A DNA stretch of 64,000 nt, taken from NCBI GenBank assembly GCA_964016885.1, contig OZ024740.1, positions 333,436,001-333,500,000 on the forward strand. Reading direction: 5' to 3'. Source of the DNA: Eledone cirrhosa (Eukaryota). Below, in pieces: positions 3,199-61,885 of the stretch (its first letter is position 1; each line of letters begins with the position of its first letter). The translations under genes were made by a program, and so were the position numbers. Below the pieces are notes generated by a model. It was not told where the DNA came from and did no database searches. It saw only the letters and a list, made by a program, of their open reading frames with translations.

Positions 3199-5466
3199 TT
3201 AAACCATATTTAATGCTGGTCTATATTTTTGAATAAACATATTTCCCTTATTTATTCGTATTTGTTCTGTTGTATTGTTAGCGCAAAGGTAAAATGGGAA
3301 GACTTGGAATTTGGGTCTCTTATTACTTGCGCATATGTCTAGATGTGCGATTAGTGGTATCTGTTTCGTGGTTGGATCTCGTAGTTGTTGGCGATGAACT
3401 GTCATTCTGTTTCTGAGTGTGAGTTTAGTTTGTCCTATATAATCTTCATTGCATCCTTTACATTTAATTGCATAAAGAAGATTTTTTGATGAGCAAGTGA
3501 AGTGGTTTTTTACAGCAAAATGTTGTCCTGATTTAAATGTATACGTGTTGCCTTCAATGAGGTGAGTGCAGGTTCCACAATTTGAGCGACCACATTTTAT
3601 GACAGTTGATTGTGGGTTTGTGGTAGGTAATTTGGCATTGGTGAGTAATGTTTTCACTGATTTCGGTTGTCTTTTGCTCTTGATTATTTTGTGTGTTTCA
3701 AGGGCTTTTTTCATTATTGGGTCTTGTTTTAGTAGTGGAATGTTCTTGTGAATAGTGTTGAAAGCTTCCGCATTTCTTGGGTTTTGTGTTGAGATATATG
3801 ATAGAACATTGGACGTACCTTGAATTTGTTTCTGTTTTCGTAATTCATCAATGCCTATTGCTTTAGCCCTTTCTATTCCATTATTTATTAGTAATGGTGG
3901 GTACTCTCTTTCGAGTAGAATTTCCTTTAATTCTTGAAGTCTTTTATTTCGCGTTTCATAATTGGAGACAATTGTGCAAATTCTTCTTGCTAGGTTAAAA
4001 GGAATGTTTGTCTTCGTGTGCTTTGGATGGTTGGACGTGAATAGCAGGTATTGTTTGGAATCTGTTGGTTTGTAGTGTATGTCAGTTTCAATATTTTTAG
4101 TCTTTTTTACAGATTAAGATATCCAGAAATGGGAATTGATCTTGGCTGTATTCCATTGTGAATTGGATGTGGTTATTGATGCCGTTTATTAAGCTTTTTA
4201 AATCCTTCAGTTGGTCGAGTGTGTGGGACCAAAGAATGAGACGATCATCCAAGTAGCGTTTCCAATTCTCTGCTAAATATTTGTGGAAGTTTAATCCGTA
4301 TTTTGATTTGGACTGTTCATATATCTTGACTTCTATGTATGCCATGACTAAGTTGGCATAAGTTGGTGCGGCTTGTGTACCCATCGCAGTCCGAGATATT
4401 TGCTTGTATGTACTGCCATCGAAATCAAAAAAGTTGTTCTGTAAGATGAATTTTAATCCCTCGGTGATAAAGCTTTTTTCTATTCTGCCAGGTATCTCAT
4501 TGGGATATTTCTCTAGCCAGAATCCTATTGCTTCCAGTCCGTATTGGTTTGGGATCGTTGTGTAGAGATTCACTACATCGAAAGACACAATAATAGTGTC
4601 GTTGTTGACATATTTTCTTTTGAGGGGGGTGGGGGTTAAGAGGTCGAGATCGTCTCTTACAAGGCTTGGTATGTGTTTGAGAAGTATGTCTATAAATTTG
4701 CTCAGTCTGTGGGTTTCACATTGTTGGCCCGCTAGAATTCGTCTTAATTTAAGGTCCGTGGAGTATTGTGTGTTCACGCAGGTTGAGGTGTGTTGTTTAC
4801 ATGCATCGTTAATTATTTTACACTTGTGGATCTTCGGAAGTCCGTAAAGGTTGCTGGTTTTGTATTCAAAATGTGTTAAATAATCGCGTTCCTTTTTAGT
4901 TAGGTCTTCTGGTATCGACAAATCAGTGTGTTTAATCTGGTCATTGTTTTTGATTGCTGGTAGTTTTTCACTGTTTCATAGTAATTAGTATTTTTTAAGA
5001 GAGAGAACATAGCATTTTTATATTTTTCAGCATCCATAATGACAACAGTACTTCCCGTGTCCGCTTCCTTAATTATAATGTCCGTAGTGTTTTTTAGTTC
5101 ATGGATAATCTCCCATTCCCTTCGACTCGTGTTGGGTTTGGGTTTTGGTTGCGGCAGTTCATGGTATGGGAAAGTAGCTATATGGTCACAAAATTTGTCC
5201 AGAACTCTGTTTCTACCTTTTGTTGGGTTGTAGCTGCTTTTATTCCGTGCAATTGATTCGTCGTTATTGTCCTTGTCAAAGAATTCCTCTGTGAGACGTA
5301 ATTTTCTACAGAAGTGTGAGATATCATCATTCATCTCATTGAGGTTAGAGTATTGTGGTGTTGGTGTGAATTTCAGTCCTTTGGAGAGAATTAGTACTTG
5401 TTGGGCTGAGAAGTTTGTATTTGAAAGGATGATTATTTTCGGTTTTTCAAAATCGGTTTGTGCCAC
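3199..5466 (-). pseudogene. PLE RT-GIY-YIG polyprotein broken into several frames
   Basis: Consecutive ORF-track fragments carry RT motifs, then a CxxxxCxxC Zn-finger linker and the GIY-YIG motifs. Confidence 0.92.
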
Positions 5467-6362
5467 CGGGGTCGTGGGTCCTGTAGCCTTGGTCTAAAAA
5501 ATGATTTTCATGGAATGTTTTTTTCAATGGTATTATTATATCTAATGGTATTTCTCCTGTTATTGTGTGGTCTTGTATAGAAGTTTCGGACGTATTGAGG
5601 TTCGGTTTGTTGATAGTCCGGGTTCTAGATTTTGTTCCTTTGTGTGGGTTGGAATCTACGGTTTTGGAACAGGCTCTGTGTGGGCAAGGGTCTACGGTTT
5701 TGGAATAGGTTTTGTGTGGGTTGTGATCTGCGGATCGGATCCTGTCTTGTGTTGGGGGATCTTCGGTTTTGTTAGTAGGGTCATAGATTGGTCTATGGGT
5801 TCTGGGATTATATATATATATATACAAACACACAGACACAGACACACACACATATATATATATGTATATATATATATATAAAATTGTAATAAGCGGAGCA
5901 AGCAAGATTCAAACAATTTTTTAAAATAAATTAAAAAATATAATTTAAATATTCACCTATTCCTTTTTCTTTTACCGACAGTTTCACCTCACAAAAGAGT
6001 GAAAATCCTAGGGACTTCCAATGGAAATGTTCGGATCTTCAGAAAGCATTTTCCCTACATAGCACGTACAGTTCCAGGAAGGGCAAAAATATATTGCCAT
6101 CTGCCAGCTACTACAGGATTGAATGAGGCCGTAAACTTGACCTACACAAGAAACCAGCCCTTAGTAGAAGCGGAAGTAAACATAGACATTTTGTATATCC
6201 CCACAGGTACTAAGTACCTTTGGAAATATGTAGGGTGTCTATGGTACAGTGGTTGTTCCATGGTATTAATTTGACATACCATAATTATCAAATTGAGATA
6301 ACCGGAGTAAGCATGTTTCAAACAATTTTTTTATAAATATTGATCTTCTTTATATATATATA

Positions 6363-8610: not shown

Positions 8611-8645
<35 letters not shown>

Positions 8646-8650
<5 letters not shown>

Positions 8651-8805
8651 CGAAGGAAATGTGGTAAGGAACCAGGTGGACCATAACGCACCAAAGTACT
8701 CAATACTTAGGGTAGTAGAGTGGGTAATAGGAACCAGTAAGACCCCGTCCAGAATTAGCCGTCGAAACGGCTTGAGCTCAGCCGTCAGGGTCTTACTGGT
8801 TCCTA
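8646..8805. repeat. Fold-back fragment of the 23.2-23.5k Naiad pLTR
   Basis: 8646-8746 is the reverse complement of 23357-23455; 8747-8803 matches 23317-23375. Confidence 0.85.
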
Positions 8806-8829
8806 TATATATATATATATATATATACA

Positions 8830-14599: not shown

Positions 14600-16662
14600 G
14601 GGCAGTAATACAGGAAAGTTTTGTGCAATTTATGTTTACAGGCTGAAATTGCCTCAGATTTTTTGTTTAAGACGTGGTCTTTGGCGTAGAGTATTTCCAG
14701 GCCTCAGCGGCGCAGAGGTCACATGGTCTTTTATTTCCGTTATACGATCTAGCCCTAGCTAGCATCTCCCAGTGTAACTTATATTGGGTGTGGTTGTCCT
14801 TTAGAATCCAGATATAAGCTGAAAGTGACGTCATATTCCTTCTTAAAGGGTTACGAAAAGAATGGGTGTACATGTAAAGACGCTGCTTGAATCTATTGGC
14901 GGTTAACCCTATGTAGGCCCTACGGGACGTGGGTGTTTTAACGTTACATTTGTAGACAATGTTACTAGAGAGGCATTTCCCGGATAGGGGGCAGTCAACT
15001 AACTACAGGGTTGCATGTGTTCCTAAGGCTAGGAAGTTTAGCTAAATTTGAAGCTGTCATGTTACGTGCAAGTCGTAGAGTAAGACATTTTAATAGTATT
15101 TCTATTAAAAATGTTACTATATTTATGTGTAGGGGAAAAATGCTTCATAATAAGGGAGATAAAGATCTTAGCTAATGGTGTGGCCACCGCCATATTATAT
15201 GGTGGGTTATACCATATAATGCGTCGCGATCTATTTCTTCTAGGTCTATTCTCGTACTCTGTATATGCTACCTTATCGACAAATCTACTCCGAGAAAGAG
15301 CTTCATTGTAATATGAATGCAATGGTCGTTGAAAATATGCTCGTTAGTAGATAGACGGGAAAGCCTCAAAGAAACGATTCTTACCAGTTTCTTGGTTATG
15401 CTGGCAGGATGGTTAGAATGCTTCCTCGTGTAATTAAGCATATCATTCGGATTTCTATACGGGTAATGCAAGCCATTCGATAAATTGAGAGTAACGTCGA
15501 GGTAATTAACGAACGAGAGGGTGGCCTCAACCTGTATAGAGAGTTGAAACCTTTAAAGAAGGCTGTGAGTTCTTTTCTGAACATGTCGCAAACCAGTGGG
15601 CCGCATTTAGTCATGGTCAAAAGACCATCATCACGGTACAAACCACCGCCCACGTTGGGGAATTCTTCTTTGATAGAGAAAAAACGGAAAAGGCCGATAA
15701 GATCAGTAACCTCTGCAGAACCGCTGGCGCCCATACTCACGTCGTATGGGGTACTATTAGATTTTATAATCCAAATAGAGTCGTCGAAATTAATCACCGA
15801 CTTACGGGCATTGAGGATGACATCAACTTCGAAATCCTTAACCACTGTGAGTGTTTTAGCGAAATTGATAGCTCTAAGGAGCAGTTGTAAAATGATGGAG
15901 AAGTAGTAATTATTGATGTCGAATTGGATAAAACGGCAATGTTCCTTGTTGCATATGCCGTTGAACCAATCAATAACCGCGAAAGATTTGTTCCACAGTG
16001 CAAGAGGGGCCAAACTTCTAATTTCAGGTATAATTCTATCAAGAATCCTTTTACTAAGTCTACCTAAATCGGACTTCGTAGTGTTAATAATCCGAATAGA
16101 GGGGTTGTTTGGAAAATTGGATTTGTGATCCTTCAGAGTAAAGTGGGGAGAAATAGGGTCCAGAGGTTCAGACGGTCCAGGATGTTGAGATCAGAGGTGA
16201 TTTTAAACCCAGCATCGTTGATTTTATTAATGACACTCTGATTAGGTTTACGGTAATCCTTAGTTACAGCATTATGTAGCAGTTGATCCGCTCAACTTGA
16301 TATAGATTGCCAGTTTTGTCAGAATGGACGTGCATGGCATTAGAATCCTTAATAGAACGAATTCTATTATTCAGGTCCTGCTGGAAGGAATTGCTCCTAT
16401 TCCAAAATTTGATATTCCGTATGAGTTCCAAGACATCATTTTCGAAGGGTAGCAATGCTGAGTTACTCGGAGGGTTATTATAGGTTTTAAACCCAAATTT
16501 ATCCTGTTTGCTGTCTGATTTTCACTGATTATCGAAATAAAAGGCACGCCAGTGCAACCTTTTAATGAACGCGTTTGTTTTCTGTATGAGGAGTTTTAGG
16601 TATGTTTTTCTGCTTGGTACGGGTATGTTCTTTGTAGAAATATTCAGATGTTGTTTCTGCAT
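14600..16662 (-). pseudogene. Naiad-type RT-GIY-YIG ORF with stops and frameshifts
   Basis: ORF fragments 16264-16455, 15396-16013, 15268-15471, 15062-15322 and 14667-14873 are colinear; in-frame TGA at 16522-16524. Confidence 0.9.
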
Positions 16663-21570: not shown

Positions 21571-21731
21571 CGTTAACCTAATATATCCCTTCCATATACT
21601 GGACCGATGGTGTTGTTATTTCTGTTTAACTTTTACATACACACACGAATTTATATATATAACGAGGGCAGTGTTCAGAAGTAGCTGTGGAAACGTCTGG
21701 AGCTCAGCTGTCTGGGTCCTGACTCTTTTCC

Positions 21732-21793
<62 letters not shown>

Positions 21794-21803
21794 AACGAGT
21801 AGG

Positions 21804-21899
21804 ACCCCGACGGATGAGCACAAGCCGTTTCGACGGCTAATTCTGGACTAAATGAACATTTTTATCCTGCTATATGAATAGCCGAGCTTCTCAGGGGGT
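21804..21899 (-). ncRNA. Type I hammerhead with extended stem II (inverted copy)
   Basis: Reverse complement of 23265-23361 with a few substitutions in stem III. Confidence 0.65.
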
Positions 21900-23264
21900 A
21901 ATTCCATATATGGTAAAAGTGATTGTAACAAGGATTGGTCAAAAGTCTGTTGTTGAGACACATAATTCTATCATGGCAATTTGTGGAAGTTATGTTCGGA
22001 GGAAACTTTACAAATGTTGTTTTCGACGGACCAACTCCTAAACAAGAAGGACGAACTGGTAACTGCATGCAAACACAGATTGCGTAGGACTGACCTCGCC
22101 CTCAAACCCCATGATGACCCGGGGGGGGGGTAGACAAGGGCTGTAACACCCCACTTGCCGACTTTGTAATGGGTAACCCCTGCTTGCAAAGGTAGACGTA
22201 AGATTTTCTTTTATACCTTTTTATCGCTTCCTCTATATTTCCTTCTTCCCCCCATCCCTTCCTAGTCCTTCCACCCCAGTCCTCTTTCTTTGTCGTCGTC
22301 CTTTTCACGTTCTCGCCCACCCGAGGCAGCCCCTCGGTCTTTTGTAGCCTCAGTACCCCCACCCCTTTCCCCTATTCTATGATAGAATTGGTCGACTCCG
22401 CTTTTTATACCAGATGTGATAGACCCCGGATACTTGCTTTCTTATCCGATGGCTGCCCCTTTTCCGTGCTTTCTACGTTTCTTAGTGGTATCTTTGCTTT
22501 AATTTCTCGTATATCATTATTTTTTTTTTTTAATTAATTATTAAATTGTTCATATACTTCGTACGAGCATTTATGTAGTTTGCACTAGAATTTTTGTATC
22601 GTAGCGGCACCCTTAGAGATAGTATTAGTATTCTTTTTCGGGATTCTGATTTATTATTTCGTATTAGTTTATTTTTTGCACTGGGTTGTTGCTGGCCTTG
22701 TGCCTAGGGTAGAAACAATTATTTCATATTGGTCTCGGGACTCTGAATTATTATTTCGTGGTATTTTCTTTAGTCTTTTGGCCCCCCCACTTGTTGACTC
22801 GTCACCGTAATATATACTCGGTTGATTACTACTACCTCTTAAAAGGGTCTCATTATAATTCCGTTTTACCTAGTAAACTTTTCTATAGTCTAGCAGTACC
22901 AGTGAGGGACTTGATGGCTGTCGTTGGGGAATAGTAACCAGTAATGTTTTTTGTTTTTTTTTTATATTTAATTGTTTTTTTTTTTTATTCTCGGTATTCT
23001 TCTATATTTTTACCCCATATTGTTTTACTTTTTGTTTCGACTTCCTCCCCATCCCCCTCCCTAGTATACTTCCTTTGCTTCCTGCCCTGCTGTAGTTGGC
23101 ACTATCAACGCACGACGGGGTTTCCTCCACCCCCTCTCCCTCTTTCTTCTACTGGCAGGTTCATCTACCACTTCCTTCCACAAATTGCCATGATAGAATT
23201 ATGTGTCTCAACAACAGACTTTTGACCAATCCTTGTGACAATCACTTTTACCATATATGGAATT

Positions 23265-23361
23265 ACCCCCTGAGAAGCTCGGCTATTCATATAGCAGGAT
23301 AAAAAATGTGCATTTAGTCCAGAATTAGCCGTCGAAACGGCTTGAGCTCAGCCGTCGGGGT
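23265..23361 (+). ncRNA. Type I hammerhead with extended stem II and CUGAGAA core
   Basis: ACCCC / CUGAGAA / 57-nt stem II (ggcuauuc...gaauuagcc) / GAA / ACGGCU-ugagcuc-AGCCGU / C / GGGGU; predicted cleavage after GUC at 23356. Confidence 0.75.
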
Positions 23362-23452
23362 GCTACTCGTTCCTATTACCCACTCTACTACCCTAAGTAT
23401 TGAGTACTTTGGTGCGTTATGGTCCACCTGGTTCCTTACCACATTTCCTTCG

Positions 23453-23492
<40 letters not shown>

Positions 23493-23499
<7 letters not shown>

Positions 23500-23614
23500 C
23501 TGTGTATGGTATCGTTGGTATAATCTCTCTTTAAAAACTGTCGTTCATTTACACTAGTTAATTTATTCAGGAATGGTGCATTCGTTTGTTTCGTGCATTG
23601 ATTTTTATAGGGTG

Positions 23615-23702
<88 letters not shown>

Positions 23703-23900
23703 AGCATCCTATAAAAACCAATTCGTTTGTTTCGTGCATTGATTTTTATAGGGTGCTATATATATATATATATATATAGCATCCTATAGAAACCAATGCA
23801 CGAAACAAACGAATGCACCACTCCTGAATAAATTAACCAGTGTAAATGAACGACAGTTTTTAAAGAGAGATTATACCAACGATACCATACACAGCATACC
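23493..23900. repeat. Inverted repeat pair around (TA)n tracts
   Basis: 23493-23618 is the reverse complement of 23776-23898, with an extra partial copy at 23701-23758. Confidence 0.85.
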
Positions 23901-26047
23901 GAAAGTATGAACTTCCGAAAAGCGAAAATGGCGACAATAAATAAAATAAACACAATAATATATTGCAATAATATTTAGAATGTTGATACATTAAGTAACC
24001 TCACTGTATAGAACAATACAGGTTTTTAATTTAAACCTCACTTAAAATACCAAAATAGAATTCGGGCGTTTCAATATAAATTTTCTCCTGAGATACAGAA
24101 AAGGATTGCGAATGGTCTCACACTGAAATCGCAATAACGAACAGTTTTATAATAGTAAATGATTGTGGATATTAAATATCTAATTGCAGTTACAAATCGA
24201 TTCACGGAGAAAGGAACTGGAAATCTTGAATATCGGTTTCTAAATACCAGGAAACTCGATGATATTTTTCTTTAGTATTATTTGAATGCCTTTTTTTCTA
24301 TTTCAAATGTGTAGCAGTATTTGCGGTCTCAGCTGAAAACCGACCGATGTCAACTCTGCTTCTCACGATCGCATGTTCGAGAAAATGAAACGCCCGTCAA
24401 TATCAGCTTGTTCATCCTCCTCCTGATTTGCTGGCCTTGGGCTATTGGACAAATGCGTATGAATATTTTTTCTGGATGTTTCGTGTTCAAATCCAGATGA
24501 AGAGCCAGGCACGTACTCAATTTGTATTCATTGACTATTTTCTTTTAAACATTGCTGATTTTCTTCTTAAAGTAGAGATCATTATATTAATCTATCTTGT
24601 ATTTTTTCTTGTCATTGTTCAAAATACATTTTAAATATCATGGGTGGAAATCACAATTTTTAGAGGAATGTTTTAAGTCCCGAATCAATTTAATGGTTTC
24701 AGTTGAAAATGCGTGATGGTAAGTAGTTTGTGAAGTTATATACTTTATTTCCTAAAATCATTTGTTGGATTTGTATCTCGAGTTGAATCTTCCAGAAAAT
24801 CAATACTTATTGTTTACATTCCATCAATAAAAACACTTCGTTTCTCCAGGCTCGTAGGTATTTTGGAAGTGGTTATTTATCTACTCCCAAACAACAAATC
24901 AGTTCAGCTGAGCCGTTTTGTCGACAAATAATATTCAAAATAAAATATCGTTCTTCAAACCAATCGGGATTTATTCTACAACCAACATTTTTATTGGATA
25001 ATGTCATCTTTGTCATTCCATACATCACGATTCCCTTCTGTTAATTCATTATATCTGAAAAATAAATATTTTAAATGTACATCTCGCTGAAACGTTCTCA
25101 ATTATTTAATATATATTTTCTCTACACTTGCGTTTATACGTGTATAAAAAAATTGCTTCTATTGATGTTTTATTTTATTTTATTATAGTGTGAAAATATT
25201 TATCACATAATTCCCGAATCAATCCCAGTTGTATATTTCATATTCATCAATATTTGTGTTGTTATAAATACGTCTAAGCAAATGCATAGATGTATATCTA
25301 ATATAACTTTCGTGTTTGTGTATTGGGTGTTAATTCAACAAAATATATTCTGCATTTTGATAGCTATTTTCCAGTATAGGCATCGTGCACTTTTTACTTT
25401 CATATTTAACCCTTCTAAATTCACCGTTATTGAGTTGATGGGGGGTTGGGTTTAATCTACATACGTATTATACCCTAAAGAGAAATAACAGTTCACATTA
25501 AATTGTAATCTAACGCAATCGATTTAAAAGAAGCTACGAAGCGTGAACAACTTTAGGAATACAATGTGAGATATTAGCTGAATGTATGCATATCATATTG
25601 AACTATTTACATGTTCTTTTCCAATGTGTATCAGCAAATATTCAAATATATACAATATTTATAACCAGGAATATTTGTTGAGGCACATTATATTTATATA
25701 TCAAAGAAATACTAAAATGTTTACACACTTTTCCTTTCAATTGATCTTTTAAATTTTATATTTAGAAAGCTCAGTTTTGATTACAGGGAATGGAATCGCT
25801 TCCCTTAAAACAAGTGTATTATTCGTTTGAAAAAACATGGTATGTAAAATGCGTGTTTATTTTGTAACGTATAACATAAAATGACTATGGCGTTATCCCG
25901 ACGTTTAGGCTCATCCATAGTCTTTCAATAAAATGTGTATTCTAGGTTAAAAATGATCTTTCTGATAAGTTCACGTTAAGGGTGAAAGCAACGATTCTTT
26001 GCTTAAACTTTAATCTTTTTTAAATATATATATATATATATATACAT

Positions 26048-27106
26048 ATTGAAAAATCTTGGAAGAGATACCTTGACGACTGTTTCATCATCTGGACAGA
26101 ATCTCTAGATACTCTGGATGAGTTCAATATCCTCCTGAATAACCTACACCCATCTCTCCAATTCACAAAAGAGATGAGTAGGACCAAATTACCATTCCTA
26201 GATATAATGATAATCAAAAACGACACCACCATTACCACGGATATATATTATAAACACACAGACACCCATCAATATCTGAATTTTAAGTCGTGCCATCCAC
26301 CTCATACAAAACGCAACTGCCTAGCCAGAAGAATTTGTACCATTGTAGAAGATACGAATACCAGGTACAAACGCCTAACAGAACTAAGAGAATTTTTGCT
26401 CAAACAAAAATACCCATCTCTACTTATAGAAAATGGCATACAGCGGGCTATAAAAATACCTATACAACAACTTAGAACAACCCAAGGAAGAAGAAACCAA
26501 GAACTGGTCATACCATTTATAATGACACACAACCCATGTCACCAGAATATATTCAACACTGCCAAAGCAAACCTACCGATCATCGCTCAAAGTAATGAAT
26601 TAAAAGGCTTAATCACAGATCGATCTTTGACTCTTAGTAAAAGACAGCCAAAAAATTTGAAGCAATTGCTAACAAAAGCAAAGTTTGACCTTAACAACAA
26701 AGACCAATCATTCACTGTATCTAAATGCAATGATAATCGATGCGGCACATGTCAATCCATACACGCCGGTCAATATATGAAAACAAAAACTGGAAAAATA
26801 TTCCCAAATGCAAATATGAACTGCAAAAGCAGAAATCTAATTTACTGCATTAAATGCCCGAATTGTGAAGAACTGTATGTCGGTCAAACTGGAAATGCAC
26901 TATCGGAACGTGCACGGGTACACCGTCAACAAATCAGAGACCCAAATGTCCGTCAGATACCCCTAAGCGGCCACCTGGCAACATGTGGTCAGGGAATATT
27001 TATAATATTCCCATTCTACAAATTACACAGCCCAAGTGAAATCAAGAGAAAAATCAAAGAAAAGAATTTTATTGATAAATTCAAACCCAAGCTAAATGAA
27101 CAATAA
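26048..27106 (+). CDS. Open but 5'-truncated PLE RT/thumb plus GIY-YIG endonuclease frame
   Basis: The frame upstream of ATG 26174 reads IEKSWKRYLDDCFIIW, then LPFLD, YLNFKSCHPPHTK, CNDNRCGTC, NCKSRNLIYCIKCPNC and YVGQT. Confidence 0.9.
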   Translation: MEKSWKRYLDDCFIIWTESLDTLDEFNILLNNLHPSLQFTKEMSRTKLPFLDIMIIKNDTTITTDIYYKHTDTHQYLNFKSCHPPHTKRNCLARRICTIVEDTNTRYKRLTELREFLLKQKYPSLLIENGIQRAIKIPIQQLRTTQGRRNQELVIPFIMTHNPCHQNIFNTAKANLPIIAQSNELKGLITDRSLTLSKRQPKNLKQLLTKAKFDLNNKDQSFTVSKCNDNRCGTCQSIHAGQYMKTKTGKIFPNANMNCKSRNLIYCIKCPNCEELYVGQTGNALSERARVHRQQIRDPNVRQIPLSGHLATCGQGIFIIFPFYKLHSPSEIKRKIKEKNFIDKFKPKLNEQ

Positions 27107-27726: not shown

Positions 27727-27729
<3 letters not shown>

Positions 27730-28090
27730 GATATTAAATAAATGGAAACTATATTTATAAAACCATATTTATTTCATTATATATATTTCAGGGATATCAT
27801 ATTAAAAATATGGTATGCCTTCATCAGACAAAATACAATATAAACAGTCTTATAAATAGATAGATTTGACATACCTTACACTTCAACTTCCATTTAAAAA
27901 GTTGATTTGGTAGTTGATTTTTAATATGATATCCCTGAAATATATATAATGAAATAAATATGGTTTTATAAATATAGTTTCCATTTATTTAATATCGTAA
28001 ATATACTCCAAATAATTGTTGAGTTCTTTTATATCAGTTATAAATATTTACTCGTTGTAACACAACAATTTAAATAAAACTTTGCATATA
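27727..28090. repeat. Fold-back pLTR-like repeat (same family as 39.0-39.46k)
   Basis: 27727-27810 is inverted to 27918-27998; hammerhead-like motif on the minus strand at 27777-27831. Confidence 0.75.
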
Positions 28091-33452: not shown

Positions 33453-33953
33453 TTATTCAGTGATTTTTTTACATACTTGACTTCCTTTTCAACACAAGAG
33501 ACATATAGAAACATATGTATATATTGACCCACAGTGGGTTGACATACATTATAATAATATAGCATGACAATTTACATACAAAGATTACAGTCATATTAAA
33601 GGACAAAATTAAAGTTAAAATTAAAAGTAAAATTAAAATTAAAATAAAATATTGGCAGTTTATGAAGATAAAGCAAGAGGAAAGTTTGGAGTAGCCAGTG
33701 TATGCAGCAGTCACACGTGAGGCATGCACGCGTGTCCTATTTATACAAGATTATAGTGCGGCAGATTGTTACATGTAAAACAAGCAGTCAAAGCAGGCAA
33801 TCAAGAGCATCATGGGGGCTGTACTGGTAAAGCATTTTTCACACTCACCTGTACAATATAGAAGCCCGTGTGTAGAGAAACACCAAAAATATCAAAAATA
33901 TTACAAATGAGAAGCAAAAGAGCACCACTGTCCTCGCACACACCACCACTCTG

Positions 33954-35441
33954 ATGATATTGGCCACCAACCGCGATGATGCACTTCTACTTATAGATTA
34001 TAAAAAATTCAATATAGAAAGAACTAGAAAACTATCGCACAAGACATTCAAAAACTATAACCTTAGTATTTCCATGGACAAAAACACTAAAAACGTTAAC
34101 TTCCTGGACGCCACCCTCTACCTAGATTCAAAGATGTATGCACCTTTCCACAAACCTAATGAAAAACTCATTTACGTAGATACCAAGTCTAACCACCCTA
34201 GATCTATATTAAACTCTATCTCTAAGGGAGTATCTAATAGAATCTCTAATCTATCCTATGACGTAAACATATTTAGCAAAAACTCGCAATATTATAATCA
34301 GGCATTAGCCAGATCAGGCCATAATATAGAGATCGAGTTCCTACCTACAAAAACACATAGCTACAACATTATTTCACACAACATGTCCATGAGGAAATTT
34401 AGTAATAGGAATAGCAACCACCTACACACTAATACGGAGGATGCCAACAAAAGTAACCCACACCACAGAAATTATCATAGTACCATAAAAGGAAACAACT
34501 CACCATACATAAAAAACAAAAATAGAAGAAATAATACATTTTTCAACCCTCCTTTCAATCTAAACGTCTCTACCAACCTACCTAGGGCTTTCTTCTCACT
34601 ACTAGATAAACACTTCCCATCCGGCCACAAGTACCATAGCATTTTAAACAAAAACACTATTAAAATCTCCTACTCTACTACGCCTAACATAGCATACCAC
34701 ATAGCTCGTAGCAATAAAAGAAAAAATAATTCTTACTTCCAACAAACTAAATCACAACAGACGATAAACATTCAAAATAACATTATAGCATCTAACCCTA
34801 ATATCAATAGAAATAATAGTAATAGCACACGTGTAAACAATAACGCTGGGAACGATAACCCTATAGCTACTATCCAGACTTCTACACAACATAATAACCG
34901 GCAGACTAACACCCAAAATAATTGTAACTGTAGATCAAATAGAACCTGCCCTTTAGATAAAAAATGCTTAATCAAGGATAGCATATACTCATGCACAGTC
35001 ACAACTAGCAACTCTTTTGAAACCTATATAGGCTCTACTTCAAACTGCTTCAAAACCAGATACAATTCGCACCTCCACTCTTTCAAAAAACACAGTCTAG
35101 CCAACTCCACTTCACTATCTAGCTACATATACTATCTAAAAACTAAAATTAAACCATATACATTTAAATGGGAAGTCATAGGTAACGCGACATCGTACAA
35201 ACCACCTAATAAATTGTGTAACCTCTGTCTACTAGAGACCCATTCTATCATCTTCTCAAACCATAACCTCCTTAATAAAAAATCAGAGTGTTCTCGTCTT
35301 GCCAACACCGCTTCCGACACTCCTTCCAAAACTTTAAACCCAATATATAACAATGTCAAACTTGAACCCGTCACCACCTCTAGCAACAAACATCAGGAGC
35401 ACACCTTACACCTCATCTCCACACCCATTAATCCACTTTAG
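33954..35441 (+). CDS. Truncated Naiad-type RT (from the DD motif) plus GIY-YIG endonuclease
   Basis: RDDAL, VNFLDATL, PFHKPN..YV..SNHP, FFNPPFN, KISYSTTPN, CNCRSNRTCPLDKKCL, IYSC..YIGST, CNLCLLE and LLNKKSE; probably frameshifted at the extreme C-terminus. Confidence 0.9.
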   Translation: MILATNRDDALLLIDYKKFNIERTRKLSHKTFKNYNLSISMDKNTKNVNFLDATLYLDSKMYAPFHKPNEKLIYVDTKSNHPRSILNSISKGVSNRISNLSYDVNIFSKNSQYYNQALARSGHNIEIEFLPTKTHSYNIISHNMSMRKFSNRNSNHLHTNTEDANKSNPHHRNYHSTIKGNNSPYIKNKNRRNNTFFNPPFNLNVSTNLPRAFFSLLDKHFPSGHKYHSILNKNTIKISYSTTPNIAYHIARSNKRKNNSYFQQTKSQQTINIQNNIIASNPNINRNNSNSTRVNNNAGNDNPIATIQTSTQHNNRQTNTQNNCNCRSNRTCPLDKKCLIKDSIYSCTVTTSNSFETYIGSTSNCFKTRYNSHLHSFKKHSLANSTSLSSYIYYLKTKIKPYTFKWEVIGNATSYKPPNKLCNLCLLETHSIIFSNHNLLNKKSECSRLANTASDTPSKTLNPIYNNVKLEPVTTSSNKHQEHTLHLISTPINPL

Positions 35442-54039: not shown

Positions 54040-54990
54040 TATATGTGTTTACTTAATGGTATCAGTTTTAGGAAATGGTATTTGTAAGAAGGAAAGCCAA
54101 ATTATGTAGTTCAACATTAGTAGAATATTAATTATAGGTCAACTAAAATAAAAATAGTTTATATATTAATTTCTAAGGTGTATACTAATTAGGTTTATAA
54201 TATATAAAGCGGAATTATGTAGTTCAACAGTAGTAGAATATTAATTATAGTTTAACTAAATTAAAAATAATTACATATGTTTACTTGATGGTATCAGTTT
54301 TAGGAAATGATATTTGTAAGAGGGAAAGCCAAATTATGTAGTTCATTGGTAGTAGAATATTAATTATAGGTTAACTAAATTAAAAATAGTTAATATATTA
54401 ATTTCTATAGTGTATATTAATTAGATTTATAATATTTAAAGCAGAATTTTGTATTTTATCTGTAGTAGAATTTCAATTATAGGTTAACTAAATTAAAATT
54501 AATCTATATATTAATTTCTAAAGTGTATATTAATTAGATTTATATTTAAATGTTTTTCTCAGTTTATGATTACACGATATTTTGTATTTCATCTGTAGTA
54601 GAATTTTAATTATAAGTTAACTAAATTAAAATTATAGGTTAACTAAATTAAAATTAATCTATATATTAATTTCTAAATTGTATATTAATTAGGTTTATAA
54701 TATTTAAAAGTTTTTCTCCGTTTATGATTACACGATATTTTGTTGTATTTCATCTGTAGTAGAATTTTAACAATAGGTTAACTAAATTAAAATTAATCTA
54801 TATATTAATTTCTAAAGTGTATATTAATTACACGATATTTTGTATTTCATCTGTAGTAGAATTTTAAATATAGGTCAACTAAATTAAAATTATAGGTTAA
54901 CTACATTAAAATTAATTTATATATTAATTTCTAAAATGTATATTAATTAGGTTTATAATATTTAAATGTTTTTCTCAGTTTATGATTACA
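54040..54990. repeat. Minisatellite array derived from the Naiad ORF end and 3'UTR
   Basis: Repeated units ggttaactaaattaaaatt, gtatattaattaggtttataatattt and tttatgattacacgatatt. Confidence 0.85.
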
Positions 54991-56559
54991 CGATATTATT
55001 AATTCCAGTCGCTTATTTAATAGGATATCCTTAGATTTCATTATTTCGAAAAGTTCTTGGGAACACAATCTACATTCATTTCTACTATTTTGATAAGGGG
55101 TGGCTCTTTTGAGCACACTCCAGGTCATGTCATATTCTATATTCCTCTTTCTATAACTATTAATTTTTTCTGCTAGAGATGTTGTATTAGCTAATGCGGC
55201 ATTTTTAAAACTATGTTTGTGGGTATTAAATCTTGCCTTAAAATTGTTAGAAGTAGCTCCTATATATGAACAAATAGAGTCCTTAGTGTTAACTTTACAT
55301 TTATATACTATGTTATTAACAAGGCAATTTCCTTTTAATGGGCAGTTTGCCTTGTTTCTACAGTTACAACTTTTCGTTAATCCTGTATTTGAGGAGATAT
55401 TATGGCTAGTTTGATGTACTGGTGGTATACTTATGGGTTTTTTTCATGTATATGCATTATAGGCACTTATATTTTGTTTTATGTTTTTGGTTGTTGAGTA
55501 TGAGAATTTAACTGTTGATCTATTTAAGATTTGATGGTATTTCTGGTTTGGCGGGAAGTTTTTCTCTAGGATATTAAAGAATTTTTTAGGTATATTATCC
55601 TTAACCTGTAAATTAAAAGGAGCATTATACCAAGTAACACGTTTATTACGGTTTCTATGTTGTTTATTGTTTTTATAGGATGCATCCTGATGTTTACTAG
55701 GAGAATTATTGTTAATGACCTCTCCACACACATTTTTAGTTAGATTTATTGATTTAGGTGTTTTAGCTTGTTTATTAGGAGTTTTATTATTAACATTTAT
55801 TAGAGTTGTAGGATGAGTAGTTTTTTGAGAGTTACTATACTGTATATTAGAGGAGTTAGAGAAATTTGGTTTTATGTTGGTATTTTGGGGTATAGTGTGA
55901 GTGGCATTTAGGTGTGTACGTTTCATTTGGTGTTTGTTGGTAATATTAGGTTGTATGTTTGTAGTGTTATTGGTAGAAGGTATATATTCCAATCTATTTT
56001 TGTGGCCACTTCTAGCTAGAGCTTCGTTATAAAAGGTCGCATTTTTATCAAATACATCTTGGTTAGACGAAAGGTTAGAAATTCTAAGTGATATATTATA
56101 TGCAAGGTTTTTAAGGATAGATTTAGGGTGATTAGATTGTGAGTGTATGTAGTGTAAATTTTGGTTGGGTTTATGGTAAGGTTGGTAGATACCCGTAGCT
56201 AAGTCTAATGTTATATATAGGAAATTAACTACTTTACTTGTGTTTTCAAATGTAATATCTAGACTATAATAGTCTTTAAGGAAAGTTCTAATAAGCTTTT
56301 TGTTTTTCTCTATCTCTGAGAGGCTAAGGTTATTGGAAAGAAGAAGACAGTCGTCACGATATAACCCACCTTTAAGGTGGGGAAAGGAAGCATTTATGTT
56401 AAAAAGAAGAAAGAGGCCCACAAGATCAGTAATTTGGGCAGAATCGCTTGAGCCCATAGTAATATCAAATAGATTACTATATGTGTTTCTGGTCCAGTAT
56501 TCATTCTGAAATTCAATTAGTGTTAGTCTAGCATGTGTAATAATATTAATGTCATCCAA
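54943..56559 (-). pseudogene. Naiad-type RT-GIY-YIG ORF, truncated, one break near 55440
   Basis: FDITMGSSDSAQITDLVG, GGLYRDDCL, YIHSQSNHP, VTWYNAPFN, then CNCRNKANCPLKGNCL, YIGAT, CRLCSQE and LLNKRLELIISCNH. Confidence 0.92.
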
Positions 56560-57147
56560 AGTTAAGTTAGATCTATTAAACGTATGGATGTGTAAGTGTG
56601 CGTGTGTATATAAGCATATATATTTTTGCGTTTCTTTTGTGAGACATGCGTGTCAATGTATGTATGTACCTCCTTTTTTTTTGTCGTCTTTCCTTTAGTT
56701 TTTTTTTTTTTTTTTTTTTCTAAAATTTTTTCTTTCTAATTTATTGTTACAATTTTATAAATATATCGAGATTGATACTTTCCTTTAATTATTACACTCC
56801 CTTACCTCTTTTACTTCCGCATCTAAGTGTACGTGTGTGTAGGCGTGTTTATGCGCGCGCCTTCATATTCATATACTTATGATGTATCTATTCTGTCTGT
56901 AGATTACAGACATACAGATACATTGGCCCTAAATTTTAGATTTACACACACTTTTTCACTATACGTATACATATGAGCATACACATATATGCACATCTGT
57001 GAGCGTATTTACATACATATACACACACCTAACTATATTTCTTGATAGATTTTTATATATTTCATTCTCTATTTCATTTGTCTATTCAAAACCTGTTCCC
57101 TAACAGACCTATTGTATTGAATCTTTGTTCTTATCAATAAACAAGCA

Positions 57148-58412: not shown

Positions 58413-59644
58413 AATGTGTGTGTGTGTGTGAGAGACTCTGCTAGATACATACTTACGTATGTATGTATATATGTATGTGTGTATATATGTGTGTACGTAC
58501 GCATGTAAATGTGTATATGTGGAAATCAAGAGACGACATTGCGACTCCTTGCGCGAAAATACATCCATTTCATTCGCCACCCAATTTCACGTATATTTCA
58601 AAGGCACAAACTTCTTTTGATTTGCGGACGCAAAGCAACCGCCTTCTGATGAATTTCAAAGTTGTGCCACTTTGTATGTATGATGAATGACAGCTTACGT
58701 CAAAATTTAACGCAATCGTTTGAATACATAACTCTACTCTTTTTCTCAATATAACGTTGTTTAGAGTTCACGAACACGCTGCTTCAACGAAGCCTTTAAA
58801 TTACACATGAATAAACAGATACAGGATTCGACACAGCTCTTACACAATATTACATGTGGCATTTCAAATGTAATTTTAGTGTCAATTTGTTTTTTTTCTA
58901 ACCTTTATATCCGAAGGCTGTGGCATTTGTATTAATATATTTTCTATCCCGTAATATTATTCACATTATATCTGAACACAAAATAAATCTGCCTTTTACG
59001 ACAAGAAGCTAATTTTGTTTGTTTTCAAACATGATAGAAGGGCGCTTCTGTTAGCTATACAAAATCGGTTGGAATATGATATTTAATGAATTATTCATAC
59101 TTATTCATTTTTGGAGAAGAGAATCTGGTATCATTTTTTAAATTAAATTTCATTATTGGGTTATATCTTCTGATTTTCAATATTTTAGAGTATCAATAGA
59201 TTATTATTAGAATCAAAGTATTCATTATAGCTTTTCAACACAAATGTCAAAGTAGCAAATCTAAGTTTATTTCGTTGAAATAAAAATGTTCTGCTCGGAT
59301 TTCAAACACCCAAGTATTTTTCTCCAACACTTTGCATTTAGTCAATATAAAGTGAATTTTGAAGAAGGATATTTCTTTTAATTTGAATGAATATTACAAT
59401 CAACGCCTATTTTGATCCCAGTAATTCAGGAATGTTTCTTTAATTTCATCGATTTTATTGTAGTGTGTAGATCTTTCAAATATAAGAATCACATTTCCAA
59501 ATTTCGTACAAGCATATTTCTTCACAACAATGCTTATGAACAAAAGATCGATCACACATATGCATTATGCATTATACACATACACACGCCTACACACATA
59601 CACACAAACACACAGAGACATACACATACATACATATATATATA

Positions 59645-59859
59645 TAGGAAAAACTATGACCCCGACGGCAGAGCTCAAGCCGTTTCGCTGGCTATTTCTG
59701 GACTAAAAAAATTTTTTTTTTTTTGTCCAGAAATAGCCGTCGAAACGGCTTGAGCTCTGCCGTCGGGGTCATACTTGTTCCTATTACCTACTCTACTACA
59801 CTAAGTATTGAGTAATTTGGTACGTTATGGTCCATCTGGTTCCTTACCACAATTCCTTC

Positions 59860-59865
<6 letters not shown>
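59645..59865. repeat. Fold-back fragment of the 23.2-23.5k pLTR family
   Basis: 59645-59706 is inverted to 59722-59785 and continues into the pLTR tail. Confidence 0.85.
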
Positions 59866-59911
<46 letters not shown>

Positions 59912-61762: not shown

Positions 61763-61885
61763 TAGGAAAAGAAAGAGGACCCCGGGGTGCTGACTCTTTT
61801 CCTATTAACCACTCTACTACTCTAAGTATTGAGTACATTGGTGCTTTAAAGTCCAGCTGGTGTGTTACCGCACCTTTGTTATATA
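61763..61885. repeat. Fold-back fragment of the 23.2-23.5k pLTR family
   Basis: aggaaaagaaagaggacccc|ggggtgctgactcttttcct followed by the pLTR tail. Confidence 0.8.

Follow-up and report, generated by a model that had tools for sequence, protein, structure and literature searches.

A hammerhead with a seven-base core and a C·A pair at positions 3 and 8 in the terminal repeat of a Penelope-like retrotransposon: a likely split ribozyme

The substitution G8A strongly lowers the cleavage of minimal hammerheads, and a C·A pair can mimic a U·G wobble. Hammerheads with a U3-A8 pair are a known natural and active variant (PMC4209133; PMC3088659), and File S2 of PMC8557442 lists 26 hammerhead rows for the Hydra clade of Penelope-like elements, all of them with C3-G8. 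For an Anolis element, PMC11167929 describes a ribozyme that needs protein and an in vitro insertion reaction that does not need the ribozyme. Single 3-8 mismatches abolished cleavage there and left insertion in vitro unaffected, and no RNA-seq reads in that data set ended at the cleavage site. These Anolis results support help from a protein at the locus described below, but they also support a rival view in which a C3·A8 ribozyme is dead and dispensable.

The window (the whole stretch of DNA analyzed, 64,000 nucleotides from contig OZ024740.1 of Eledone cirrhosa) contains a hammerhead at 23265-23361. Both the kind of ribozyme and the clade of element that carries it are known; what appears to be new is that C3·A8 became fixed in master elements. 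No report of a fixed C3·A8 or U3·G8 state was found in the part of the literature that was searched.

The hammerhead and the insertion that carries it

The insertion, its target and the parts of the hammerhead on the plus strand are as follows.

21673..21734 (+), remnant of an older subfamily with the 3' half of the hammerhead only; its (TA)n tail is the target of the younger insertion
21735..21788, left (TA)n target tract
21789..21989 (-), inverted shorter arm that reaches to the first 3' end point and is identical to 23175-23376 in 197 of 202 columns
21804..21899 (-), second hammerhead copy with the same core, from sequence
21983..23456 (+), main arm, a 5'-truncated retrotransposon copy whose identity to a near full-length copy is 87% across 1,424 nt
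about 21984-22133 (+), end of the GIY-YIG endonuclease frame in the main arm, followed by the 3' UTR, hammerhead and tail
23265..23361 (+), type I hammerhead of the 3' terminal repeat, from sequence and from covariation over 46 copies
C3 23270, N7 (G) 23274, A8 23275 and A9 23276 (+), core positions, from sequence
G10.1 23277, C11.1 23333, GAAA 23334-37 and C17 23356, the end of GUC (+), from sequence
23277..23333 (+), stem II domain of 57 nt with closing pair, internal loop, helix and inner hairpin
23315..23318 (+), conserved YAGT of the stem II loop, where A 23316 is a likely start of capped transcripts
23337..23355 (+), stem III of 6 bp with a 7-nt loop holding the palindrome GAGCUC (23344-49)
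between 23356 and 23357 (+), predicted cut
23362..23456 (+), spacer and tail with two 3' end points, at about 23373-76 and about 23453-56
23457..23494, right (TA)n target tract

Three helices surround the core and the ends are joined in stem I, the arrangement of a type I hammerhead. Stem I of the plus copy is open and pairs 23265-69 with 23357-61 in 5 bp, and U4, G5, A6, N7, A9, G12, A13, A14, A15.1-U16.1 and H17 are all present. Across the 3.0-Gb genome, the core was counted as U3-A8 in 5,729 copies, as C3·A8 in 1,780 and with G8 in 93, including 17 with C3-G8. Since a Watson-Crick 3-8 pair, present in the U3-A8 relatives, is absent in the window and in the 1,780 C3·A8 copies, the window form is a variant rather than a canonical type I member.

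A first-pass annotation made from the letters of the window had described a hammerhead with a shortened core, a 57-nt stem II and intact stems, present in two copies. The hammerhead itself is upheld by its core, helices, covariation and family, and the core letters CUGAGAAG (CUGAGAA) are indeed identical in the plus and minus copies. The length of the stem II domain, 57 nt inclusive, is also correct, but it is not a single stem: beyond the closing pair and an internal loop, it comprises 6+3 bp and an inner hairpin. Stems I and III and the GUC site are intact in the plus copy, where the loop called near-palindromic is an exact palindrome. In the minus copy, however, two substitutions break the palindrome and one stem III pair, and the predicted active share is below 0.0001. 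The two copies are arms of one insertion and are not independent.

The core was read in the first-pass annotation either as a loss of N7 or as a mismatch between C3 and A8, and it was considered that the deletion would be private to this insertion if most copies read CUGAAGA. Most copies do not. A pattern with exact flanks and a free gap had 864 matches in the genome versus 0 for the reversed pattern, so the hammerhead is not a chance occurrence, and a core private to the window insertion is ruled out. Among the 100 of these 864 matches that were listed, 97 read CUGAGAAG, 3 were point variants and 0 were longer. When position 3 was also freed there were 5,226 matches, and the 100 of them listed had one core length throughout. 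By hand count, position 3 in these 100 was U in 74, C in 23 and another base in 3, and position 7 was mostly G, with U in 14 and A in 1. Subfamilies with C7 and with A7 also occur, and an 8-nt core has 3 occurrences genome-wide. Because position 7 varies among relatives at a constant core length, as seen in the family alignment, it is near certain that N7 is present and free, that the core has its full seven bases and that the 3-8 pair is a C·A mismatch. Loss of N7 is ruled out by the alignment, the variable position 7 and the rarity of the 8-nt core. A six-base core that retains C3-G8 and places an additional A ahead of stem II, a register that the window letters alone permit and that recalls the base common between 9 and 10.1 in minimal Penelope hammerheads (PMC4209133), is hardly tenable, given that the supposed G8 is U, A or C across whole subfamilies, that the next base covaries with position 3 and that core length is unchanged from the canonical ancestor onward.

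The active fold pairs 84% of cells over 46 aligned copies, and two-sided changes, located in stem II and at 3-8, are seen in 37 cells. None of 500 shuffles matched these 37 cells, a significance that is inflated by the kinship of the copies. RNAalifold recovered stems II and III and slid stem I onto the core, and the fold stability (z -1.1 to -2.3) is weak evidence taken alone. Rfam identified no hammerhead here at the gathering score or at E up to 10; its weak microRNA matches arise from the (TA)n between the inverted arms. The motif is a real hammerhead, and the terminal repeat in which it lies belongs to a Hydra-clade Penelope-like retrotransposon.

The relatives of the window copy contain one frame, a reverse transcriptase followed by a C-terminal GIY-YIG endonuclease, and are organized as partial tandems with an inverted 5'-truncated arm and a tail. 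Open frames of about 780 codons hold most of 81 scored matches. Frames of 784 codons are found in tandem units of 3,531 bp that differ by 0-1 bases, and the tail motif is counted 32,881 times in the genome by a pattern covering about three quarters of cases. In the frames of two relatives, RWR (RWK-like) and DKT were identified by eye, along with a CxCx5C linker and with CxxC and CxH around the E and N of the endonuclease. Together with the (TA)n target, these motifs fit the marks of the Hydra clade given in PMC8557442, and on that basis the family is placed in this clade. Pfam gave no reverse transcriptase or GIY-YIG match on six fragments of the element's frame. With the minimal Penelope hammerheads, as described in PMC4209133, the motif shares a palindromic loop III and a location in the terminal repeat; it does not belong among them, since they have an extra base between 9 and 10.1 and either no stem III or one of 1-2 bp, and here G10.1 comes directly after A9 and stem III has 5-6 bp. 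A non-LTR retrozyme was also considered and rejected, the units being 3.5 kb and coding rather than short and non-coding. In several copies (e.g. L034:7188-7204) the stretch between the 7-mer of stem II and its identical counterpart in stem III is cleanly deleted, an outcome that template jumps would produce. In the youngest subfamily (L081 4756-7107), the open frame starts inside stem III, ~70 codons ahead of the first ATG.

The window insertion is a dead, truncated copy. It begins at the last ~50 codons of the endonuclease and, with only these kept, cannot transpose by itself. Its two 3' end points, established by reading sequences, both join (TA)n through TAT, with a tail of ~80 nt to the second, and are likely internal priming sites by analogy with the Anolis element (PMC11167929). 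One change in stem II, found only in the two hammerheads of this insertion among 74 copies of the same subfamily, is predicted to favor a misfold.

Three further fold-back stubs of the family lie in the window at 8644-8806, 59644-59867 and 61764-61885. At 61783-61799 the cut site is the start of both arms, and at 8747 one arm starts from the cut site and the other from near the inferred start site. Fragments of other Hydra-like Penelope families with similar reverse transcriptase motifs are found at 15396-16190 (-), 33876-35441 (+) and 54943-56652 (-), the last with a CxCx5C linker and a weak GIY-YIG match at 54943-55443; one canonical hammerhead scan of these fragments gave no match. Broken Penelope-like elements of another clade, with Pfam matches to reverse transcriptase and GIY-YIG, occupy 3199-5908 (-) and 26024-27106 (+). 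Next to the insertion, at 23495-23899, lies an inverted repeat whose arms of 143 nt (97%) enclose (TA)n; it is likely the stub of another fold-back element, and a second inverted repeat at 27727-27999 has perfect arms of 83 nt. A canonical-core search with stem II up to 38 nt identified a different, small hammerhead family with a free N7 and a short stem II (loci L089-L118; 38 matches versus 6 for the reversed pattern).

History of the 3-8 pair

To follow the 3-8 pair through the family, 218 full copies were sorted into 11 subfamilies, whose divergence from their own majority ranges from 19% down to 2%. States were counted in searches blind to positions 3, 7 and 8. The oldest subfamily has C3-G8 in 19 of 25 matches, a middle subfamily has U3·G8 in 21 of 24, and another old subfamily is mixed (4 matches). 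The uniform C3-G8 of the published Hydra-clade rows supports a C3-G8 root.

Two trees were made from the coding frame. From 234 candidates, 221 rows were kept, of which 37 and 22 had sufficient coding sequence; one match that came from a neighboring copy was excluded. The first tree, from the last 510 columns of the frame at a distance of 1.2 kb from the hammerhead (37 rows), is ladder-shaped. Its order runs from old G8 and U3-A8 copies through U3-A8 to successive C3·A8 copies, with all 11 young copies nested inside (100/98), and a single clade for the 18 C3 rows was rejected (p 2.7e-41). One C3 row, nested among U7 copies, was excluded from the group tested, which did contain one C3-G8 point variant. 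The second tree, from a separate and non-overlapping set of 289 columns (22 rows), agrees (100/96; C3 clade rejected with p 1.2e-4). A FastTree analysis of the hammerhead region (172 rows, after 49 of 71 rows of the window subfamily had been removed at random) was poorly resolved and contained some chance rows; the conclusions rest on the coding-region trees.

It is well supported by these trees that C3·A8 lies on the trunk of the family, in the order C3-G8, U3·G8, U3-A8, C3·A8 and again U3-A8 in the intact copies of today, and that the master lineage carried the mismatch over three subfamilies before it was reversed. Well over a thousand insertions in the family carry C3·A8. Among copies with the window's type of 3' end, 71 of 100 are C3 and 29 of 100 are U3, the latter being a transitional stage. 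One lineage thus provides a dated natural series of all four pyrimidine-purine states at 3-8.

Over the 10 steps between subfamilies, the 38 loop columns accumulated 72 changes, the 11 fixed core columns 1 and the 6 palindrome columns 0, a contrast that points to selection on the fold. At positions 3 and 8 there were 5 changes, all of them transitions and at about the rate of the loops. The constraint at this pair looks like one for a pyrimidine and a purine rather than for strict pairing.

Where genomic copies begin and how the ribozyme may act

Among the tail-bearing copies listed (n=70), the end lies 26-55 nt upstream of the cut site in 46, 3-25 nt upstream in 10 and at or next to the site in 6; 2 end further up and 6 stop short of the site or are unscored. 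The loci examined contain 288 truncated arms, of which 212 have their ends between -34 and -46, most often at -40/-41, and 17 end further up to -61. The peak coincides with YAGT, of which AGT is kept in 11 of 11 subfamily majorities in a loop that is otherwise variable. Genome-wide, G was found in 2,929 of the 6,308 arms with a non-T base at -42. Among the matches listed for this position (n=100), 8 are fold-backs with G on both arms, where neither the template nor the partner arm supplies the G; C is about as common as G and is templated in one subfamily. A copied cap is the usual source of an extra G at the end of a cDNA. From the pile-up of 5' ends and the non-templated G, A 23316, which lies 41 nt before the cut site, is likely a capped transcription start. 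No downstream promoter element was recognized here by eye.

A second class of ends lies at the cut site. Among 31,132 arms that continue past it, three-base breaks fall exactly at the cut site in 461 and five bases upstream in 71. Of the 100 cut-site breaks listed from the 461, 94 are true breaks, and many of these are fold-backs in which both arms start from GGGG with a spacer of 1-4 nt; breaks at the control position are largely microhomology joints. By hand count of the breaks listed, the arms have the window's 3'-end type in 33 cases, the younger type in 57 and a hybrid in 4. The window's type is thus as frequent at the cut site (33 of 90 arms) as in the background (39 of 100, or 39 to 61; Fisher p 0.77). 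If only the U3 part of this type were cut, 16% would be expected (p about 1e-6, for arms or for insertions), and if C3·A8 were dead and half of such stubs came from U3 elements, the p value would still be 0.003. The ends are not attributable to the core of the molecule that cut them. Among the 71 copies in which the beginning of the coding frame is present, the first base lies no more than 3 nt from the cut site in 0 and near -41 in 1, and 58 continue upstream. A beginning of full-length copies at the cut site is ruled out by this count. Copying of a linear RNA, trimmed or capped, does not by itself account for full-length copies, and an additional step is needed, be it strand transfer, a circle or read-through.

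We consider it probable, with moderate confidence, that the terminal-repeat hammerhead with its seven-base core and C·A 3-8 pair is a split ribozyme that trims the capped leader of its own RNA. Transcription would start at A 23316, inside the stem II loop, leaving only the 3' half of a hammerhead at the 5' end of the RNA and a complete copy at its 3' end. The two ends would pair by swapping the strands of stem III, assisted by the palindrome, with stem I forming between the GGGG strand of the leader and the 3' copy, and stem II staying correct. The complete copy would provide the catalytic core and the leader would be cut after C17, removing 41 capped nucleotides to give a product that begins at GGGG and keeps both 3' priming points. 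The C·A pair may be accepted in the manner of a wobble, as the U·G of earlier subfamilies would have been, and the element's protein perhaps helps. Cleavage in vivo is likely, judging from the genomic ends.

The leader was modeled as joined to a full copy by a linker of 40 or 300 A, standing in for the real 3.4 kb. For 11 of 11 subfamily majorities and for the window copy, the joined RNA was 0.3-2.2 kcal/mol from the swapped active form, and cutting of the 3' copy by itself was 7-13 kcal/mol less favorable than cutting of the leader. The full monomeric stem III of the first-pass annotation can form, but the swapped duplex is predicted to be far more stable (-30.7 versus -14.2 kcal/mol for two hairpins). 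With the loop shuffled to non-palindromes, the swapped form was often equally accessible, so folding does not require the palindrome. Its conservation and the stability of the duplex nevertheless suggest a role in the strand swap.

A bolder version of the model is put forward tentatively. The promoter would lie inside the element's own hammerhead, and the split ribozyme of every transcript would assemble only when the ends meet and then decap the RNA. It would have been active in vivo while the 3-8 pair walked from C-G through U·G, U-A and C·A back to U-A, leaving hundreds of cDNA copies of the cut product in the genome. If this is true, the supposedly essential 3-8 pair varied while the ribozyme stayed active in vivo. 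For tests, the family offers genomic 5' ends at the predicted cut, a model of leader removal and young, intact and near-identical copies.

Against both versions stands the possibility, less probable and yet to be taken seriously, that the C3·A8 ribozyme was dead or nearly so, that cleavage is optional and that the lineage drifted through a broken state that was later repaired. The cut-site ends of that period would then be due to co-expressed U3-A8 relatives that cleaved in trans, or would mark points where reverse transcriptase halted at the base of stem III. The loss of cleavage, and not of in vitro insertion, upon single 3-8 mismatches in Anolis (PMC11167929) favors such a history. So does the C3·A8 stage itself, which also lost a stem II pair as the predicted active share of the monomer fell to 0.004-0.04 (0.004 in the window subfamily). 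The share later rose to 0.47 in the youngest subfamily after three changes, which regained U3 and a stem II pair and weakened the alternative fold. The loop-like rate of the five transitions at positions 3 and 8 points the same way, and the 9 changes over two steps in the C3·A8 stage are too few to show selection on the remaining core. The genomic ends, however, speak against a dead ribozyme: the mostly-C3 type is equally frequent among them, at the p value given above even if half came from U3, and the GGGG on both arms with untemplated spacers resembles a template end, whereas breaks at the control position are largely microhomology joints. In addition, the ladder-like trees show no large coexisting U3-A8 lineage, in a small sampling of 37 and 22 rows.

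Another explanation, which we regard as improbable and which is in part compatible with the split-ribozyme model, is that a double hammerhead cuts both repeats of a read-through RNA, and that the unit-length RNA is ligated to a circle from which rolling reverse transcription makes the tandems. Such a route was proposed for these elements in PMC4209133. Consistent with this, sequence upstream of the site, up to 1.75 kb of it, is present in 46 of 59 full-frame copies that were mapped. Within five arrays, 0-11 changes per 3.5 kb separate the units, compared to 20-44 between arrays of different lineages. However, two four-unit arrays alternate unit types, pointing to duplication at the DNA level, the same tandems would arise from strand transfer from one repeated end to the other with no need for cleavage, and self-cutting of the 3' copy carries the energetic penalty of the joined model. 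The alternating arrays consist of intact elements and lie at C1:437195500-437215300 and C1:91470000-91489800; units 1 and 3 are alike, as are units 2 and 4 or nearly so, which hints at duplication of a two-unit block or at a dimeric template.

The first-pass annotation had also proposed a conformational switch, in which a hairpin over GAAA competes with the active fold, and a hairpin selected to turn the monomeric ribozyme off is very unlikely to be the explanation. The hairpin is able to form, with 6 bp in the plus copy. It can pair in 95% of cells and is predicted to be dominant in the window copy (0.85) and the window subfamily (0.69). For the leader taken alone, six older subfamily majorities favor it (0.62-0.71), and there it could protect the cap before the two ends pair. 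On the other hand, it has 0 two-sided changes, with 475-500 of 500 shuffles scoring as high, and a single 7-mer, present in stem II and again in stem III, accounts for its pairs. The hairpin share of the monomer is 0.00-0.30 in six older majorities and 0.20 in the youngest; it reaches 0.45-0.69 in four subfamily majorities and the hairpin is dominant in only 3 of 11. The extra misfold of the window copy stems from a change seen in 2 of 74 copies, no trigger for a switch is evident, and the hairpin is absent from the predicted end-to-end fold. Covariation that keeps both folds, as in a riboswitch, was thus not found. The pattern is one of drift and repair, or of indifference to the monomer fold, and not of a kept switch.

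Comparison with known systems

Searches that require CUGANGA and a short stem II miss the whole family, as Rfam did, and such variants are therefore likely undercounted.

In Drosophila Penelope (Schostak et al. 2008, PMC2377424), transcription starts at an initiator within the upstream repeat, a likeness to the start proposed here. The Drosophila start lies upstream of an intron that ends at helix I, whereas the one in this family would lie inside loop II.

Double hammerheads of the newt satellite, viroids and minimal Penelope elements (PMC4209133, PMC6765202) share the strand swap through a palindromic stem III. They have two active sites; here, in contrast, the 5' partner is predicted to be a half-hammerhead and there would be one site.

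Poseidon of Anolis (Frangieh et al. 2024, PMC11167929) has in common with this family two internal 3' end points beyond the hammerhead, which delimit a tail, and AT-rich targets, and its protein-assisted cleavage is a plausible parallel. Its hammerhead overlaps the start codon, whereas the first ATG here is about 190 nt downstream. In Poseidon the site yielded no RNA ends, while genomic copies end there in this family.

The elements of the Hydra clade (Craig et al. 2021, PMC8557442) also combine a reverse transcriptase with a C-terminal GIY-YIG endonuclease, insert into (TA)n and have inverted 5'-truncated arms, and their hammerheads are likewise of type I, near the 3' end and with a self-complementary stem III region. 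The listed members differ in having C3-G8 in place of U3-A8 or C3·A8, a stem II of ~12-25 nt compared to a 57-nt domain with a likely start site, and a stem III of 3-4 bp with loops of 1-3 nt compared to 6 bp with a palindromic loop. Their units are under about 3 kb, compared to 3.5 kb here.

Finally, the U3-A8 variants of Schistosoma Cercyon (PMC4209133) and of Perreault et al. 2011 (PMC3088659) have the state held by the majority of this family (5,729 of 7,602 copies). The window subfamily is unlike them in that its C3·A8 is unpaired and was fixed in master elements.
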